Counted from the first letter of the stretch, positions 2,424 to 44,003 are shown. The stretch: DNA of 53,846 nt from Escherichia phage mEp554 (PP180005), one strand, 5' to 3'. A program made the numbers and translations. The notes: generated from the letters alone by a model not told the origin.

Positions 2424-2854
2424 TATTGCCCCCAGCGTTTTATAAATTCCTCGTTTAACTTCGTATCGCCAGACCACTGAACACCGTGTTCAGCGCCGAA
2501 CGAGTAGATCAGTTCGATTAATTCGCTAAATTCTGCTTTACTCATCCGGCTGGTTGACGTACCAAGCACAACAAAACCTGATTTATCAAGGTTAGGGACA
2601 ACGCCATATTTCTTAAGCCCGGCAGTAAATACCGCTTTCCAGTCTTCAGGGGACAGCTTTTTGCCGTACCAATTAACCTGATCGCTAACGTCTGTCAGCA
2701 GCGCCCAAAGCAACGCGTTTTGACTCAGCGACCGGGTTTTCTCCTGGATGGTAATTACCAGCGGGCTTTTGCTATCTGGCTGGATCTCTCTTATCTGCCT
2801 GACAGCATTTTCTTTCACGGCGTCGTTTACTATCTCAAATCTAATTTGCCTCAT
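2423..2854 (-). CDS. ninB: NinB/Orf-family recombination mediator
   Basis: 143 aa. Collinear with my recollection of lambda NinB (VITIQEKTRSLSQNALLWALLTDVS...VVPNL...GFVVLGTSTSRM...F..L.ELI..FG...GV.WS). Confidence 0.85.
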   Translation of the reverse strand: MRQIRFEIVNDAVKENAVRQIREIQPDSKSPLVITIQEKTRSLSQNALLWALLTDVSDQVNWYGKKLSPEDWKAVFTAGLKKYGVVPNLDKSGFVVLGTSTSRMSKAEFSELIELIYSFGAEHGVQWSGDTKLNEEFIKRWGQ

Positions 2855-3048
2855 GATACACCGTTACTATTTTTCCACTGCGCCCGCGCATACATGATCG
2901 CCCGCAAAGAAATTAGGCGCGAGCTTGTCATAAAAGCGCTTTTTAAGTACCTCATATCAACAACAACAGGCTTATCAGGATCGTCGCTGCGCATGTATTC
3001 CGCAATCGTGCTCAAGTCTTCAACTGTCAATTCCAATTCCCTGTTCAT
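2851..3048 (-). CDS. Hypothetical protein (65 aa from ATG 3048; ORF open to 3126)
   Basis: SD AAGGTGG 5 nt upstream of ATG 3048. Stop overlaps the ninB start. Confidence 0.5.
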   Translation of the reverse strand: MNRELELTVEDLSTIAEYMRSDDPDKPVVVDMRYLKSAFMTSSRLISLRAIMYARAQWKNSNGVS

Positions 3049-3058
3049 GATCGCCACC

Positions 3059-3265
3059 TTACACAATCCGCATTGTGTTTCGTAATTCACCGCGCAACGC
3101 CTGTAAAGCGTAACGAATCGACACAAAAGCCCGGTTAAATTTTACGTGCCTGTATTTGCGCATTAGTGGCGGCGTATAAACCATCGCGCCGCAAGGATCG
3201 CATGGGAATTTAAAGTGAGATTCGTCAATAAACGTTTCAACTGAATAAAAAATTACCCGTCTCAT
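3059..3265 (-). CDS. Hypothetical protein (68 aa)
   Basis: Start overlaps the upstream stop (ATGA at 3262-3265), suggesting translational coupling. Confidence 0.5.
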   Translation of the reverse strand: MRRVIFYSVETFIDESHFKFPCDPCGAMVYTPPLMRKYRHVKFNRAFVSIRYALQALRGELRNTMRIV

Positions 3266-38255: not shown

Positions 38256-40604
38256 ATGGCTACCAGTTTAGGTACAATTTATTACGAAGTTGATGCAAAA
38301 ACTGGTCAACTTCTAGTCGCTCAGAGACAGGCGGACCAGGCTTTTGACAGTATCGAGCGTGGCGCAAAACGCGCTGACCGCCAGGTGAACACGCTTAAGA
38401 CTTCAATCAAAGCACTATCCAGGGTCATTCATCTGTTACTTGCTGCGGAGGCTGTGCGCCAGTTTATTGACATGGCGGAGCAAGCAAAAATGCTTCGCGT
38501 AAAAATCAAATTGCTTACAGGTGAAGCGGAGGCAACGGAACGCGTTTTCAACAGACTGAAAGAAATATCAAAAGAAACAGGGCAAAGCCTCAAGGATACT
38601 GGCGACCTGTGGCAAGGGCTTGCTATATCGCTAAAAAACACATCCGCTACTGAAGGCCAGGTCCTCAACCTGGTTAGCACGCTGCAAAAACTCGGCAACC
38701 TGGGCGGCGTGTCTGCGGAACAACTATCAAACTCCATGCGCCAGTTCCGCCAGGCTATTGATGCTGGCGTGTTGCAGGCTGAAGAATTTAACTCAATCCG
38801 TGACAACACCCCAACAATCATACAGGAAATGGCACGCCAAATGGGGTTGTCTATGGGGCAGTTCCGCGCTGAAATGCTGGACGGCAAGATCACGGCTGAA
38901 AGGATGCTCAACGCGATCCAGGCCGCCACGCAGGAAACGAACGAGAAGTTCGCACAGTTGCCGCGCACATCCGGCATGGCCTTCAACGAGCTTAAAGTTG
39001 AGGTTATGGGACTTGTCGAACAGCTAGACGATCTTTTCGGCATATCAGATGGCGTTGTGTCGGCAATAGACTTAATCACTGGTGGCGTTGAGGGATTAGG
39101 TAAAGGCGCAAAATTCGCCGCAACATGTTTCAATACACTAAAAACGGCTGGCAGCGAATTTATCGACATGTTTGATGATGTTGCTGTTAAGGCTGGCGAG
39201 GTGGCGGAAGAGATTATCAGGATGGTAACGCCAATCAAGGCGCTAATGGATGGCTACAAATGGATGAAGGAAATCATTGACAAGCGCAAGGAAGAGCTAA
39301 ATAGCAACAACGAGAAGAAATTTGGCCCTACAGTTGGTAAGGTCATGACGTTTGCAAACGACATTAAAAACGCAACTGCCGCCTATGATGAGTTCATGGA
39401 GAAACAGGGTGAGGCTGACGATGGTAAGATCACGGGATTCGATCAGCCAGTTGGTAAACCGAAAAAAGGTAAAAAGGGCAAAAAAGACAAGAAATCTGAA
39501 GCTGATCGGCTTGGTGATGAAGGTATAAAAGTCTCTGACCAGTACAACAAAGACGCCGCCGCTATGCGTAAAGCACTGGAGAACGGCAAGGCCATTGACG
39601 CCGCATTTGCCCAGGGAAAAATAACCCTCCTTGAGTACAAGGCCGCGCAGAAAGGTATAGGCAAGGAACTGAAGGACGAATTGGCGCAAATCCCTGTTGA
39701 TGAGCTACGCGACAAATGGGACCACATAGTTAGCCCAATGGACCAGCTTAAGGGCGAAATTGACCCAATCAAACAGGCGCAAAATGAATGGGCCGTAAGA
39801 AAGCAAATGCTATTGGACCTGGGCGCTACAGAGGCGCAACAGAGACAGGCGCAATTGGAATACGAACAACAGATCCGGGATCTGAAGTGGGAGCAATGGC
39901 AGGCGCAAAGCGAAACAAACGGACTGATCGGCGCTTGCGTCAGCGGCCTGAAAGGTGGCATGGGCAATGCCCTTACAGGACTGTTAAACGGTACTCAATC
40001 ATTAAGCGAGGTTTTTGCCAACCTGGGAAGTAGCATACTTAACACCGTTGGCAACAAACTATCAGAAATTGCCGCTAACTGGATAGCAGATCAGTTAATG
40101 ATGGAAACACAAAGCAAGGCCACGCAAGCAAGTACCACGGCAGGCGCGGTAGCGGCACAAGGCCAGATTGCAGCGGCGGCGGCCCCGGCAGCGGCGGCTA
40201 CGGCTGCGTCAACTGGTGGTAGCTGGGCGGCGGCTGGTGCTGCGGCGCTTTCTGCGATCATGTCGCTGGCAACGTCAATCTTTGGTGGCGGGCGTTATAA
40301 TGGTGGTTCTGTTAATGGTGGTAGCCTGTATCGAGTAGGGGAACACGGAATACCTGAGCTATTCCAGACGAGCAACGGGCGTCAGTATATGATTCCTGGC
40401 GAAAATGGTAGGGTAATTCCTGGCCGCGATCTCTTCAATGGTGGCGGCATCAATATGCCTGTGCAAATCACAGTTCAGACCACAAACGGATTTAGCGACG
40501 AAGATAGCCGCAGACTTGAGCAGACGATGGAGCGCGTAGCAATGAAAATGATGGCAAGGGAATCGCAACGACCGGGAGGAATGTTGCAACCGCGCCGCAA
40601 ATAA
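38256..40604 (+). CDS. Tail tape measure protein
   Basis: 782 aa, helical and Ala-rich with a Gly/Ala-rich hydrophobic segment near the C-terminus. Position in the tail module. Confidence 0.85.
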   Translation: MATSLGTIYYEVDAKTGQLLVAQRQADQAFDSIERGAKRADRQVNTLKTSIKALSRVIHLLLAAEAVRQFIDMAEQAKMLRVKIKLLTGEAEATERVFNRLKEISKETGQSLKDTGDLWQGLAISLKNTSATEGQVLNLVSTLQKLGNLGGVSAEQLSNSMRQFRQAIDAGVLQAEEFNSIRDNTPTIIQEMARQMGLSMGQFRAEMLDGKITAERMLNAIQAATQETNEKFAQLPRTSGMAFNELKVEVMGLVEQLDDLFGISDGVVSAIDLITGGVEGLGKGAKFAATCFNTLKTAGSEFIDMFDDVAVKAGEVAEEIIRMVTPIKALMDGYKWMKEIIDKRKEELNSNNEKKFGPTVGKVMTFANDIKNATAAYDEFMEKQGEADDGKITGFDQPVGKPKKGKKGKKDKKSEADRLGDEGIKVSDQYNKDAAAMRKALENGKAIDAAFAQGKITLLEYKAAQKGIGKELKDELAQIPVDELRDKWDHIVSPMDQLKGEIDPIKQAQNEWAVRKQMLLDLGATEAQQRQAQLEYEQQIRDLKWEQWQAQSETNGLIGACVSGLKGGMGNALTGLLNGTQSLSEVFANLGSSILNTVGNKLSEIAANWIADQLMMETQSKATQASTTAGAVAAQGQIAAAAAPAAAATAASTGGSWAAAGAAALSAIMSLATSIFGGGRYNGGSVNGGSLYRVGEHGIPELFQTSNGRQYMIPGENGRVIPGRDLFNGGGINMPVQITVQTTNGFSDEDSRRLEQTMERVAMKMMARESQRPGGMLQPRRK

Positions 40605-40608
40605 ACAA

Positions 40609-40638
40609 AACCCCGGTACAATGCCGGGGTTATCTTTT
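40609..40638. terminator. Bidirectional rho-independent terminator
   Basis: AACCCCGG-TACAATG-CCGGGGTT with T-rich flanks on both strands. Confidence 0.8.
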
Positions 40639-40813
40639 AGTTATTCTCAAATCTTGTATATCCTCTCTCAATTTTCCCTCCGTGTACACTTCTGGCAAAT
40701 ACCGCGTCAGTATACCTGAAAAATGGACATGTATATGTATCCCCTTTGCTATCCATATATTTTAGCACCCATGCCATACGTTTTACATTGCTTTTATTTG
40801 CCGGGTTTTTCAT
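40637..40813 (-). CDS. 58-aa micro-ORF (MKNPANKSNVKRMAWVLKYMDSKGDTYTCPFFRYTDAVFARSVHGGKIERGYTRFENN)
   Basis: Consensus SD GGAGG. Last gene of the moron operon. Confidence 0.55.
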   Translation of the reverse strand: MKNPANKSNVKRMAWVLKYMDSKGDTYTCPFFRYTDAVFARSVHGGKIERGYTRFENN

Positions 40814-40831
40814 TTTATTTTCCTCCGCAAA

Positions 40832-40924
40832 TCACAACCTGCCGTTTCTTGCTATGTAGCTGCGAGCAAACATCACCTGCCAGATGTTCCAGATCTCCCG
40901 CCACGTAAATTCATCATCTTCCAT
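40832..40924 (-). CDS. 30-aa micro-ORF (MEDDEFTWREIWNIWQVMFARSYIARNGRL)
   Basis: Overlaps the upstream ORF end by 11 nt. Weak evidence. Confidence 0.3.
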   Translation of the reverse strand: MEDDEFTWREIWNIWQVMFARSYIARNGRL

Positions 40925-41063
40925 ATCTCACACCATCGCGCTTGTATGGTTCGCCATCAGCAAACGGGATTAACTCATCGTTTGCCACCATTCGATTGAA
41001 CCAGTCTTTCAGAGCAACCAGGGAGAACCGGATCCCGTAACTGTGCAATTCGCGCCACCTCAT
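40914..41063 (-). CDS. 49-aa micro-ORF (MRWRELHSYGIRFSLVALKDWFNRMVANDELIPFADGEPYKRDGVRYGR)
   Basis: ATGA overlap with the stop of the 84-aa gene. Confidence 0.45.
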   Translation of the reverse strand: MRWRELHSYGIRFSLVALKDWFNRMVANDELIPFADGEPYKRDGVRYGR

Positions 41064-41314
41064 TTATGTGCCCCTTTCACTCCACAATGTCGGTTGTATT
41101 CAAGGTGGTCAATAATTAGCCAAACCTTCAAATCTTCACTGAACAGCCGCCAATCAGGGTTTATGTCCATCTTGTAACCGTAACCATCGCGTAACTTTTT
41201 GGGGTAAACCTCTTTTTTAAGAAAAGCATCAAGTAATTGTTTTCCTTTCTTGATGATCCGTTCTTGGGCGTTTTTCTGTGCTTTCAGGTTTTTGCCAATC
41301 ATTACCAATTTCAT
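41060..41314 (-). CDS. 84-aa protein, possibly a RelE/YoeB-superfamily toxin fold
   Basis: ORF track. Loose resemblance to YoeB/RelE (RIIKKGKQLLDAFLKK ... WRLFSEDLKVWLIIDHLEYNRH). Not verified. Confidence 0.6.
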   Translation of the reverse strand: MKLVMIGKNLKAQKNAQERIIKKGKQLLDAFLKKEVYPKKLRDGYGYKMDINPDWRLFSEDLKVWLIIDHLEYNRHCGVKGAHK

Positions 41315-41334
41315 AACTCACCCCACGCAATCAA

Positions 41335-41490
41335 TCAGTTGACCACTTTCAGGAAGAAATCACGGTATTCATCTTCTTTTGCATTCATCATGAATTGACC
41401 GTATTTGAACGCATCATCAAAACCCTTCACAATCGCAACTTCCACCTGTTCGAATGCTTTGTTTAGCATTACCACTACATAGCGTTCCAT
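41335..41490 (-). CDS. 51-aa protein (MERYVVVMLNKAFEQVEVAIVKGFDDAFKYGQFMMNAKEDEYRDFFLKVVN), first gene of the moron operon
   Basis: ATG 41490 with SD AAGGGGG. The ORF-track version (to 41661) lacks an SD. Confidence 0.5.
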   Translation of the reverse strand: MERYVVVMLNKAFEQVEVAIVKGFDDAFKYGQFMMNAKEDEYRDFFLKVVN

Positions 41491-41561
41491 ATTGGCCCCC
41501 TTTGTTGGTACTGCTTTCTCTTCTTGCTTTCTGTATACATCTTGTTGCGTCCTGTGTGAAG

Positions 41562-41584
41562 CCATTTCGTAAACTGGGTATAAT
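41562..41584 (+). promoter_or_regulatory. Candidate promoter for the distal tail genes: 12-mer variant CCATTTCGTAAA (41562-41573) with -10 options TAAACT (41570-41575) or TATAAT (41579-41584)
   Basis: Read directly. GTGAAGCCATTT is shared with the tape-measure upstream region. Confidence 0.45.
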
Positions 41585-41659
41585 TCTTGTGACGAAGTTC
41601 TCATTTTTCGCGTAGAAGCGCGTAAAGATGTATGCAATATGTAACTTATAGGGGGAATC

Positions 41660-42013
41660 ATGCCGGAAGTTTTCAGATGGACGCCGCAAAGAAGCTACAG
41701 CGTGACCAGGGAACCAAATGTGTCGGTCGTTAAACTTGGTGATGGTTATGAACAGCGCCAGGCGAAAGGGATTAACACGTTGCTTGATAGCTACACCCTG
41801 GTTTTTAAAGGCAGTAGCGCAGGATGCGGTGATAGTGGGAACGTGGCGATCCAGGCAGAAGCATTCTTGAGGGCGCGCGGCGCTGTCGAGGCTTTTTACT
41901 GGTCGCCGTCTATGGATGGTGTGCAAAGGCTTTTTGTTTGCCGTAGCTGGAGTATGACAAAGGACGGGCCTGTATACACGCTAAACGCAACATTTGAGCA
42001 AGTTGTTGGCTAG
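41660..42013 (+). CDS. Minor tail protein M (lambda gpM-like)
   Basis: 117 aa. FRW.P......P.V..V.LGDGY.QR ... ends FEQVV, as I recall for lambda M. Confidence 0.8.
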   Translation: MPEVFRWTPQRSYSVTREPNVSVVKLGDGYEQRQAKGINTLLDSYTLVFKGSSAGCGDSGNVAIQAEAFLRARGAVEAFYWSPSMDGVQRLFVCRSWSMTKDGPVYTLNATFEQVVG

Positions 42014-42241: not shown

Positions 42242-42379
42242 TTAGTAGTGAATATACAGCAAACTCATTGGGTGAGCGTGCGCCATATTATTGGCTATCG
42301 CCGCCCAGTCCCAATCTGCAGCATGAGCGCCAAATACTATCAGTCCCATTATTATTAGCGCCAAAACTTCTATTTTCAT
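42242..42379 (-). CDS. 45-aa secreted micro-protein (signal peptide MKIEVLALIIMGLIVFGAHA, then ADWDWAAIANNMAHAHPMSLLYIHY)
   Basis: SD GGTGA. AxA cleavage motif. Confidence 0.5.
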   Translation of the reverse strand: MKIEVLALIIMGLIVFGAHAADWDWAAIANNMAHAHPMSLLYIHY

Positions 42380-42389
42380 AATCTGTCAC

Positions 42390-42638
42390 CTATAAGTTAT
42401 CACGCAGATAATTAACGCCCTTATCAGTGACGAATGAATGATTAACCTGGTTTTCATCCGTCATAATGATGAATAACTTTTCTTGTAGGTACTTAGCTTT
42501 CGGGTACAACGTTAAACAAACCTGATACAAAATCCCGCGCTCAATCAGCAAATCAATAAATTCGTGTTCATGATAACCGATGATGCGGGCGGCCTGTTTC
42601 AACGTGTACACATAATCACCGTGATTGCGCCGCCCCAT
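42390..42638 (-). CDS. 82-aa KilAC-like DNA-binding domain protein
   Basis: ORF track. YTLKQAARIIG...F..LL.ERGILY...P...Y...LF...T.KG..YL pattern recalled for KilAC. Confidence 0.5.
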   Translation of the reverse strand: MGRRNHGDYVYTLKQAARIIGYHEHEFIDLLIERGILYQVCLTLYPKAKYLQEKLFIIMTDENQVNHSFVTDKGVNYLRDNL

Positions 42639-42647
42639 GCTGCCGCC

Positions 42648-42998
42648 TTATTTATCGAATGCGCTCAGGTTATCGATGCAGAAGTCTTTCGCAGCTTTTT
42701 CGTATTCGCGTTTTGCTTGCGGATTGTCTGCCGGGAAACCTTTTGCGTGTATTTCACCAGGGCAAGCCTGATCCATAGAATCTGCAAAGTTAACATTGGC
42801 GTTGAAGTTAATATCTTTCGGGTTCATCTCTTCCACCTTATCCGGCACTTGTACAGGAATAACATAATAATCACGAGCATTAGACCAACAGCGGAGCAAT
42901 TCGCAACCTTCATTGCGCGCTGATTCGAATGTGTCAAATAGTCCCATGCTTTCCCATTCACATTTATCAGTCCACACGTCTAATCTGTATTTTTTCAT
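42648..42998 (-). CDS. Hypothetical moron protein (116 aa)
   Basis: ORF track. Confidence 0.55.
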   Translation of the reverse strand: MKKYRLDVWTDKCEWESMGLFDTFESARNEGCELLRCWSNARDYYVIPVQVPDKVEEMNPKDINFNANVNFADSMDQACPGEIHAKGFPADNPQAKREYEKAAKDFCIDNLSAFDK

Positions 42999-43170
42999 TT
43001 TTTGCTACAACCTCCCATTTGACAGGTTCGATCCTGTACCCCAAAACGCGTTCGTCTTCAGCGAGTAAGAGCGCGTCGGTAAGTGCCTCGCCTTCATCTT
43101 TATACAGGGCCACAGTCATTTTCCTGCCATCCGCAAGGAACACCGTCAACCTCCACACCTTATCATCCAT
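42967..43170 (-). CDS. Hypothetical moron protein (67 aa from ATG 43170)
   Basis: SD GGAGGTG 5 nt upstream of ATG 43170. The ORF track extends to 43245. Confidence 0.5.
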   Translation of the reverse strand: MDDKVWRLTVFLADGRKMTVALYKDEGEALTDALLLAEDERVLGYRIEPVKWEVVAKNEKIQIRRVD

Positions 43171-43184
43171 TTCACACCTCCGCG

Positions 43185-43286
43185 CCATTTTGTTAATCAT
43201 GCTTCCTTTTGAGTACAATATACATACTGTAAAAAACGCGATCAACCGTTTTGGTATGATTTAGCGTGATGGCGATCACAAAATGA
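43185..43286. promoter_or_regulatory. Divergent regulatory region: CCATTTTGTTAA (43185-43196); minus-strand promoter (-10 TATATT 43217-43222, -35 TTGATC 43240-43245); CRP-type palindrome CGTGATGGCGATCACA (43265-43280) merging into ATCACAAAATGA
   Basis: Near-consensus hexamers with a 17-nt spacer on the minus strand. The palindrome centre lies about 61-62 bp upstream of that promoter's predicted start. Confidence 0.55.
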
Positions 43287-43298
43287 CAAGGTGATAAA

Positions 43299-44003
43299 AT
43301 GCGCAACATACCTACAGAGATGATTATTGATTCCGTCGATGCCGGAGTCGGCGCTGTAATTGACTTGTTTGAATTAGACCTCACGCCCCTGGGTGGCGAG
43401 GTTATCCGCTTCCATTCCGGCGCTAATGGCTATTACGGCCCGGTTATCTGGAAGGGCTTGGCTTACAACAGCTACCCGATCGAGGCTACTGGCTTCGAAA
43501 TGAAAAACGAAGGTGTTTACTCACGCCCACAAATGGTAGTGGCAAACATTGGCGGCCTAATCACTGGGATGAATAACGATTTTAACGACCTGCGAGGAAT
43601 GAAGGTTACGCGCCGCCAGGTGGAAGTAAAATACCTGGACGCCGTCAACTTCCCCAATGGCAACCCGGATGCAGATCCATCTATTGAGGCTGTATCTTTT
43701 TACGTCGTTGAGGCGATGAGCGAAGAAACAGCCGACCAGGTGCAATATGAACTGTCAACGCCAATTGACGCTGACAAGGCGGTTATTCCAGGGCGCACAA
43801 TCCTCGCTGACGTTTGCCAATGGCAATACCGTGGCGACGGTTGCGGATACAGTGGCGGCCCTGTAGCTACTGAAAAAGACGAATCGACCAGCGATCCTAA
43901 GCTGGATAAGTGCAGCCACCGCCTGAGCGGTTGCCGTTTGCGTTTTCCGCGCCCGAACCCGTTACCAATTTCATGTTTCCCTGGATCAAGCAAGGTCGGT
44001 TAA
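43299..44003 (+). CDS. Minor tail protein L (lambda gpL-like)
   Basis: 234 aa. Collinear with my recollection of lambda L (RF....N......W.G..Y...PI...GFE...G...RP.....N ... C.W.YRGD.CGYSG ... DKCS..LSGC..RF). Confidence 0.85.
   Translation: MRNIPTEMIIDSVDAGVGAVIDLFELDLTPLGGEVIRFHSGANGYYGPVIWKGLAYNSYPIEATGFEMKNEGVYSRPQMVVANIGGLITGMNNDFNDLRGMKVTRRQVEVKYLDAVNFPNGNPDADPSIEAVSFYVVEAMSEETADQVQYELSTPIDADKAVIPGRTILADVCQWQYRGDGCGYSGGPVATEKDESTSDPKLDKCSHRLSGCRLRFPRPNPLPISCFPGSSKVG

Follow-up and report, generated by a model that had tools for sequence, protein, structure and literature searches.

The five-gene cassette that lies antisense to the tail operon in an mEpimmI-type coliphage, with the tape-measure gene on one side and the gpM-like minor tail gene on the other, carries as its second gene g84, whose 84-aa product belongs, by family and by predicted fold, to PF24732, a mainly phage-borne branch of the RelE/ParE toxin fold. 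The small gene upstream of it, g51, had been placed in the antitoxin position by a previous sequence-only reading of this DNA, and the cassette taken for a possible toxin-antitoxin or abortive-infection module that would serve as lysogenic-conversion cargo. Comparison with related genomes argues that g51 and g84 are probably not a classic toxin-antitoxin pair.

The window, by which we mean the whole stretch of DNA analysed here (53.8 kb; 53,846 nt), is the complete genome of an mEp021-type (mEpimmI) coliphage. Over its full length it is related to the Mexican E. coli phages mEp010, mEp044, mEp013, mEp515 and mEp021, with which the cassette region shares 89-93% DNA identity. The mEpimmI group consists of Nus-dependent temperate siphophages (PMC11893012); the cassette, its promoters and any operators are not discussed in the paper on the group (PMC11893012). 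Over its whole length the window gave no match to Rfam and no tRNA. The cassette and the genes on either side of it are arranged as follows.

38256-40604, plus strand: tape-measure gene, left flank of the cassette.
40637-40813, minus strand: g58, 58 aa, basic, the last gene of the cassette.
40832-40924, minus strand: g30, a micro-protein of 30 aa, with an 11-nt overlap with g49.
40914-41063, minus strand: g49, 49 aa, variable cargo, its start overlapping the g84 stop (ATGA).
41060-41314, minus strand: g84, 84 aa, basic (pI 9.8), RelE/ParE-superfamily fold (predicted), Pfam PF24732.
41335-41490, minus strand: g51, 51 aa, acidic (pI 4.85), phrog_29810, function unknown.
41660-42013, plus strand: gpM-like minor tail gene, right flank of the cassette.

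The minus-strand frames of 51, 84, 49, 30 and 58 aa proposed in the sequence-only reading were all recovered, and so were the two couplings it had described: the plus-strand tcat at 41060-41063 reads on the coding strand as the ATGA that joins the g84 stop to the g49 start, and g49 and g30 share 11 nt (40914-40924). The remaining intergenic gaps are 20 nt between g51 and g84 and 18 nt between g30 and g58. In the annotated frames, pN/pS was 0.09 for g51, 0.13 for g84, 0.13 for g49, 0.12 for g30 and 0.18 for g58 (up to 24 distinct homologous sequences, only 3 for g49), and the same comparison in the two other frames gave values of 0.8-2.6 (1.5-1.8 for g30). These substitution patterns show all five to be genuine genes, under purifying selection in their own frame only. 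Shine-Dalgarno sequences were read from the DNA for each of them: AAAGGGGG for g51, GGGGTGAG for g84, AAAGGGG for g49, GGTGTGAG for g30 and GGAGG for g58. The start of g51 is an internal ATG of a 108-aa ORF, with its Shine-Dalgarno 5 nt upstream, and because this element supports that start we favour the 51-aa form of the protein. Note that gene callers often extend g51 to 67-69 aa or more (up to 89 aa in mEp010); the reading frame, followed upstream of g51 in the window (41335-41661, minus strand), shows no start codon at the matching position.

Judging from the DNA, the stretch from the tape-measure gene to gpM most likely houses an antisense transcription unit that is complete in itself. 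Three elements bear on its transcription.

40609-40631, both strands: two-way intrinsic terminator, a GC-rich hairpin with T-runs on both strands.
41532-41560, minus strand: candidate sigma-70 promoter, with the -35 element TTCACA at 41560-41555, a 17-nt spacer, TG at 41539-41538 and the -10 element TATACA at 41537-41532.
41561-41659, both strands: putative divergent control region of the cassette and gpM, strongly conserved.

The terminator lies 5 nt beyond the stop codon of the tape-measure gene and likewise beyond that of g58, and terminators are annotated at the equivalent place in mEp010 and mEp021. A bidirectional terminator had previously been placed at 40609-40638, and it is present, with the hairpin itself mapped here to 40609-40631; a terminator scan found no further terminator inside the cassette. 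The other boundary, a divergent promoter region at 41491-41659, fared less evenly. A consensus promoter scan of this interval reported no promoter, being silent on the candidate because its -10 element lacks the final T. Conserved promoter-like elements are present: when 25 distinct intergenic sequences were aligned, mean pairwise identity was 0.97 for TTCACA and 0.94 for TG plus TATACA, and 0.69 for the variable 17-nt spacer between them. Since the hexamers are nearly invariant while the spacer varies, a sigma-70 promoter reading into g51 and driving the cassette is plausible on the strength of this conservation, with a predicted transcription start near 41525. The rest of the interval, 41561-41659, has a mean pairwise identity of 0.90, above that of the synonymous sites of the flanking genes (pS 0.43-0.61), and contains on the plus strand a TATAAT that never varies (41579-41584), whose -35 element is poor, and a 10-bp-phased direct repeat, CGCGTA, at 41609-14 and 41619-24. 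This region may be an activator-dependent promoter that restarts transcription of the tail genes beyond the antisense cassette.

The phage group was sampled through gpM, not through g84, and this yielded 31 mEpimmI-type contigs. g84 was present in 31/31 and g51 in 29/31, and the commonest architecture was g51 and g84 alone, with 685 nt between the tape-measure gene and gpM. Neither gene was present at 49 more distant lambdoid gpM loci, where the end of the tape-measure gene, if matched, lay 3-15 nt or about 170-500 nt from gpM. The cassette is indeed, as had been proposed, an insertion relative to other lambdoid tails, but g84 is a core gene of its phage group and not optional cargo. Downstream of g84 the content varies (g49-g30-g58, g30-g58, g58 alone, or other genes): g49 is confined to the window, mEp515 and three viral contigs, g30 is kept in 19/27 related loci and g58 in 16/27, mEp515 carries an HNH endonuclease gene between g84 and g49 (L002, 1932-2438), and mEp021 has a zinc-ribbon gene in the downstream cargo position. 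The g84 allele beside the HNH gene of mEp515 is only 62% identical to that of the window. Because g51 and g84 are fixed while the genes downstream vary, we see here a core of two genes with a hotspot for small cargo genes behind it, and g49, g30 and g58 are most likely exchangeable small cargo genes. Among 5,426 complete E. coli genomes, 31-34 contained the module, always on the chromosome.

As with the lambdoid morons (bor and lom of lambda), the cassette interrupts a run of conserved late genes and brings a terminator and a promoter-like site of its own; it is missing from closely related tail modules, and the genes at its downstream end are phage-specific. Unlike them, it is antisense to the late operon, and its first two genes are core genes of the group and not optional ones. 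A second antisense cassette of small genes was observed within the tail cluster, on the minus strand at 42242-43245, between gpM plus a 65-aa ORF and gpL (43299-44003). Its four ORFs encode a 45-aa peptide with a hydrophobic N-terminus and proteins of 82, 116 and 77-92 aa, the 82-aa protein being labelled in RefSeq, in related prophages, as a KilAC-domain antirepressor.

We then come to g84 itself. The protein matches Pfam PF24732 ("ParE-like toxin domain") over residues 19-75 with E=7.7e-12 (45.5 bits, cut-off 24.4), and all its full-length homologues carry a precomputed PF24732 domain. This family assignment is already known, being present in Pfam and in RefSeq, where the protein is labelled "ParE family toxin-like protein"; it also corresponds to phrog_1525, of unknown function, and a full-text literature search retrieved no paper citing the accession PF24732. 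Searches of the PDB with the single sequence and with a profile returned chance matches only, so that at the sequence level no solved toxin was found. At the superfamily level, the loose resemblance to YoeB and RelE remarked on in the sequence-only reading is real. AlphaFold, given an alignment that included homologues down to 23% identity, produced a confident model (pLDDT 88.3, pTM 0.76) with the compact alpha/beta fold of the RelE/ParE superfamily (a sheet, an N-terminal helix and a C-terminal helix), and the top Foldseek match to this model was YoeB (probability 0.96). An earlier model, built on a shallow alignment of close relatives, had a pLDDT of 56 and was discarded. The predicted order of elements is beta-beta-alpha-beta-beta-beta-alpha, with an N-terminal beta-hairpin and one helix, versus the two helices of canonical RelE. 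The best structural matches were the ribosome-dependent mRNA endonucleases YafQ, YoeB, RelE and HigB, and in a viral structure library the model matched PF24732 proteins of jumbo phages with TM values of 0.72-0.86.

Across 16 family members from very different phages, with identity to g84 down to 23%, no variation is seen at K40, L41, R56 and H70 and almost none at N74. H70 comes directly after the last strand, which we take to be the same place as that of H87 in YafQ and H83 in YoeB, and the invariant histidine would presumably occupy the position of the catalytic histidine of both enzymes. When the family profile was compared with YoeB and YafQ by hhalign (E values of 0.068 and 0.21, the YafQ and YoeB sequences having been verified against the PDB), the weak YoeB alignment (E=0.068) paired R56 with YoeB R65 and the helix RIIKKGKQLL with RIVKKINELI, and the YafQ alignment paired DINPDWRLF with HVEPDWILIY; since these alignments are short or weak, they are leads and not tests. 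The catalytic residues of YoeB are E46 and H83 (PMC2807027), the latter being the residue with which H70, conserved after the last strand, is to be compared. It is plausible, from this pattern of conservation, that K40, R56 and H70, with Y73 and N74, form a candidate active site of the mRNase type. In size and charge g84 also resembles YafQ, YoeB, RelE and HigB, being small, basic and within the class of about 85-95 aa; it differs from them in its lack of a sequence-level match to the solved toxins and in its N-terminal hairpin and single helix, in the absence from the cassette of a DinJ, YefM, RelB or HigA-type antitoxin, and in a family distribution that is mainly phage-borne and extends to strictly lytic phages.

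The family name raises the possibility that g84 is a ParE-type poison, which would inhibit DNA gyrase and so block DNA replication of the host or of a competitor. Both the Pfam name, ParE_like, and the RefSeq label speak for it. A toxin of the same superfamily, ParE2 of the PaaR2-PaaA2-ParE2 system of an E. coli O157:H7 prophage, is among the structural matches (5cw7, 5czf). Against a gyrase poison, the mRNases outranked every ParE in both structure searches; the family keeps an invariant lysine, arginine and histidine, the arginine being the one that aligns, weakly, with YoeB R65; and the HHpred result recorded for the homologue in Klebsiella phage Muenster, annotated as a "putative YafQ-like ribonuclease toxin" (97.7% to 4MMG_B), points to YafQ. 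Unlike the O157:H7 system, the cassette has no regulator gene. We consider a gyrase poison very improbable. The same Pfam name, together with an N-terminus unlike that of canonical RelE, does count against reading g84 as an mRNase.

Members of PF24732 are found far from the mEpimmI group. They occur in lytic jumbo phages of ~350 kb, within long arrays of small genes; the copy of phage Muenster lies in the terminal repeat; one member is directly upstream of a T7-type RNA polymerase gene, another is near a gene like T7 gp0.4, and yet another is carried by the lytic phage Sortsne. Scans of the neighbours of these distant homologues found no antitoxin family and no gene related to g51. The unrelated phage contig L039, composed of small genes that share one strand, has homologues of g30 (55%), g58 (51%) and g84 (51%) at 175-261, 384-512 and 2838-3104, in an order different from that of the window and with no g51, suggesting a pool of small genes that is shared between phages. 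The closest functional analogy for the members in jumbo phages and beside T7-like early genes is RegB of T4, a phage endoribonuclease with a RelE/YoeB-like fold and no known antitoxin, which T4 uses early in infection to inactivate mRNAs (PMC3014915).

Is g51, then, the antitoxin of g84? In a classic type II toxin-antitoxin or abortive-infection module, a labile g51 would bind and neutralise g84; g84 would be freed, and the cell arrested, once the prophage is lost or another phage attacks. Several features have the look of such a module: the RelE/ParE fold of g84, a small acidic gene that ends 20 nt before a basic one begins, both on one strand, not separated by a terminator and apparently in one operon, and the presence of the pair in 29/31 genomes, where it is often the whole cassette. 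Truncated or frameshifted copies of g84 exist in some prophages and contigs (P0034-P0037, P0099, P0102), and at the sole locus of this kind that was checked for g51, in E. coli Ecol_244 (L043, 1759-1923), g84 is disrupted and g51 intact, which is the safe direction of decay for a toxin and its antitoxin. Retention of g51 under strong purifying selection directly upstream of g84 would be what is expected of a neutralising partner, and this counts against the reading that we favour below.

The loss of g51 speaks the other way. In two genomes, the viral contig L016 and L024, g51 has been precisely deleted with g84 left intact. L024 does not differ from the prophage that E. coli UMNK88, a cultured strain, carries and that L037 also represents. 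The deletion joins the similar first codons of the two genes, ATGAAAC... in g51 and ATGAAA(T/C)TGGT... in g84 (L016 2440-2515; L024, L037), and g84 therefore stands directly behind the ribosome-binding site of g51; the promoter elements are kept in both genomes. The two g84 genes differ at 10 nt, 8 of the differences being synonymous and 2 non-synonymous, and all the invariant residues are kept; g84 is still under purifying selection. No other copy of g51 was detectable at the DNA level in the UMNK88 genome. Judged by these genomes, g51 is dispensable for survival of the lysogen, which argues that g51 and g84 do not form a classic module of the addiction type, in which the antitoxin is not to be lost while the toxin is intact.

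The nature of g51 and its pairing with g84 point in the same direction. Neither an antitoxin family, nor a DNA-binding domain, nor any other family of Pfam, NCBIfam or PADLOC matched the protein, and a profile search of the PDB gave chance matches only; NCBIfam and PADLOC scans of all five cassette proteins likewise found nothing, with the limit for the defence models of PADLOC set as high as E=1. With the same limit, a search of 50,697 phage records found g51 in only 6 phages, all mEpimmI, and the distant homologues of g84 have no g51-like partner. Very different g84 alleles, with 58%, 82% and 88% identity to the window protein, occur beside one and the same g51 allele. The identities of g51 and g84 are correlated (Spearman 0.66) no more strongly than those of g51 and gpM (0.65), and therefore reflect linkage only. 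Conservation is higher in g51 than in g84, the opposite of what is usual for an antitoxin and its toxin. A small acidic partner that lacks a DNA-binding domain and is encoded in a prophage would, we assume, resemble PaaA2 of the O157:H7 system, but g51 shows no similarity to PaaA2 or ParD and is dispensable, and g84 scores lower against ParE than against the mRNases. Taken with its clean loss beside an intact g84, these observations do not bear out the small upstream gene as an antitoxin, and we regard a classic toxin-antitoxin or abortive-infection module as unlikely.

The reading that we favour, tentatively and a little short of even confidence, is that g84 is a RelE-type effector which the phage itself deploys on mRNA or translation, with g51 as a non-essential modulator and g49, g30 and g58 as unrelated cargo. 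The sigma-70-type promoter at 41560-41532 would fire leftwards, producing a transcript of its own, antisense to the late operon and independent of it, which would cross g51, g84, g49, g30 and g58 and end at the two-way terminator (40631-40609). The g84 protein would bind the translating ribosome or its mRNA and then cut the mRNA, its putative RNase activity depending on the invariant K40, R56 and H70, with Y73 and N74, as active site. The phage would use g84 to reshape translation of the host or of a competitor, presumably early in infection and possibly from the prophage, and g51, a small acidic protein specific to the lineage, may temper it. If g84 were an active mRNase expressed from the prophage, its tolerance by UMNK88 would need low expression, narrow specificity or repression.

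That tolerance without g51 in a lysogen would also fit a protein that has the RelE fold and no catalysis, with g84 acting as a decoy or regulator by binding to some factor of the host, which could be the ribosome, an antitoxin, a protease or a defence protein, and with the other cassette genes as unrelated accessories. The variant N-terminal topology of g84 is in line with this, as is its standing as a core gene of the phage group, which fits a role in the life cycle over a poison; and in another phage the homologues of g30 and g58 accompany one of g84 in another order, as expected of a shared pool and not of one machine. The invariance of K40, R56 and H70 across very divergent members, however, resembles an active site more than a binding surface, and we hold a non-catalytic binder to be quite unlikely. 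Extending the favoured effector reading to the whole family, PF24732 would comprise mainly phage-borne effectors of RelE fold that act on mRNA or translation and need no antitoxin, analogues of RegB deployed by T7-like phages, 350-kb jumbo phages, Sortsne-like siphophages and mEpimmI phages; g84 would then be the member that became core in the antisense tail-operon cassette of a temperate lineage, with g51 as a newly recruited, non-essential modulator. As a statement about the family this is doubtful.

As they stand, these results give an ordinary family assignment, anticipated by the databases, and an instructive negative on the toxin-antitoxin reading. They also document three conserved micro-proteins, 30-58 aa long, which are overlooked by most gene callers, and they advise caution in annotation, a toxin-like fold with a small upstream ORF being insufficient for calling a toxin-antitoxin system. 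If it is true that g84 is an active nuclease used without a cognate antitoxin, the precedent of RegB would extend to a widespread, uncharacterised family, and a "toxin" fold would serve as a tool of the phage, beyond the addiction and defence modules of bacteria.
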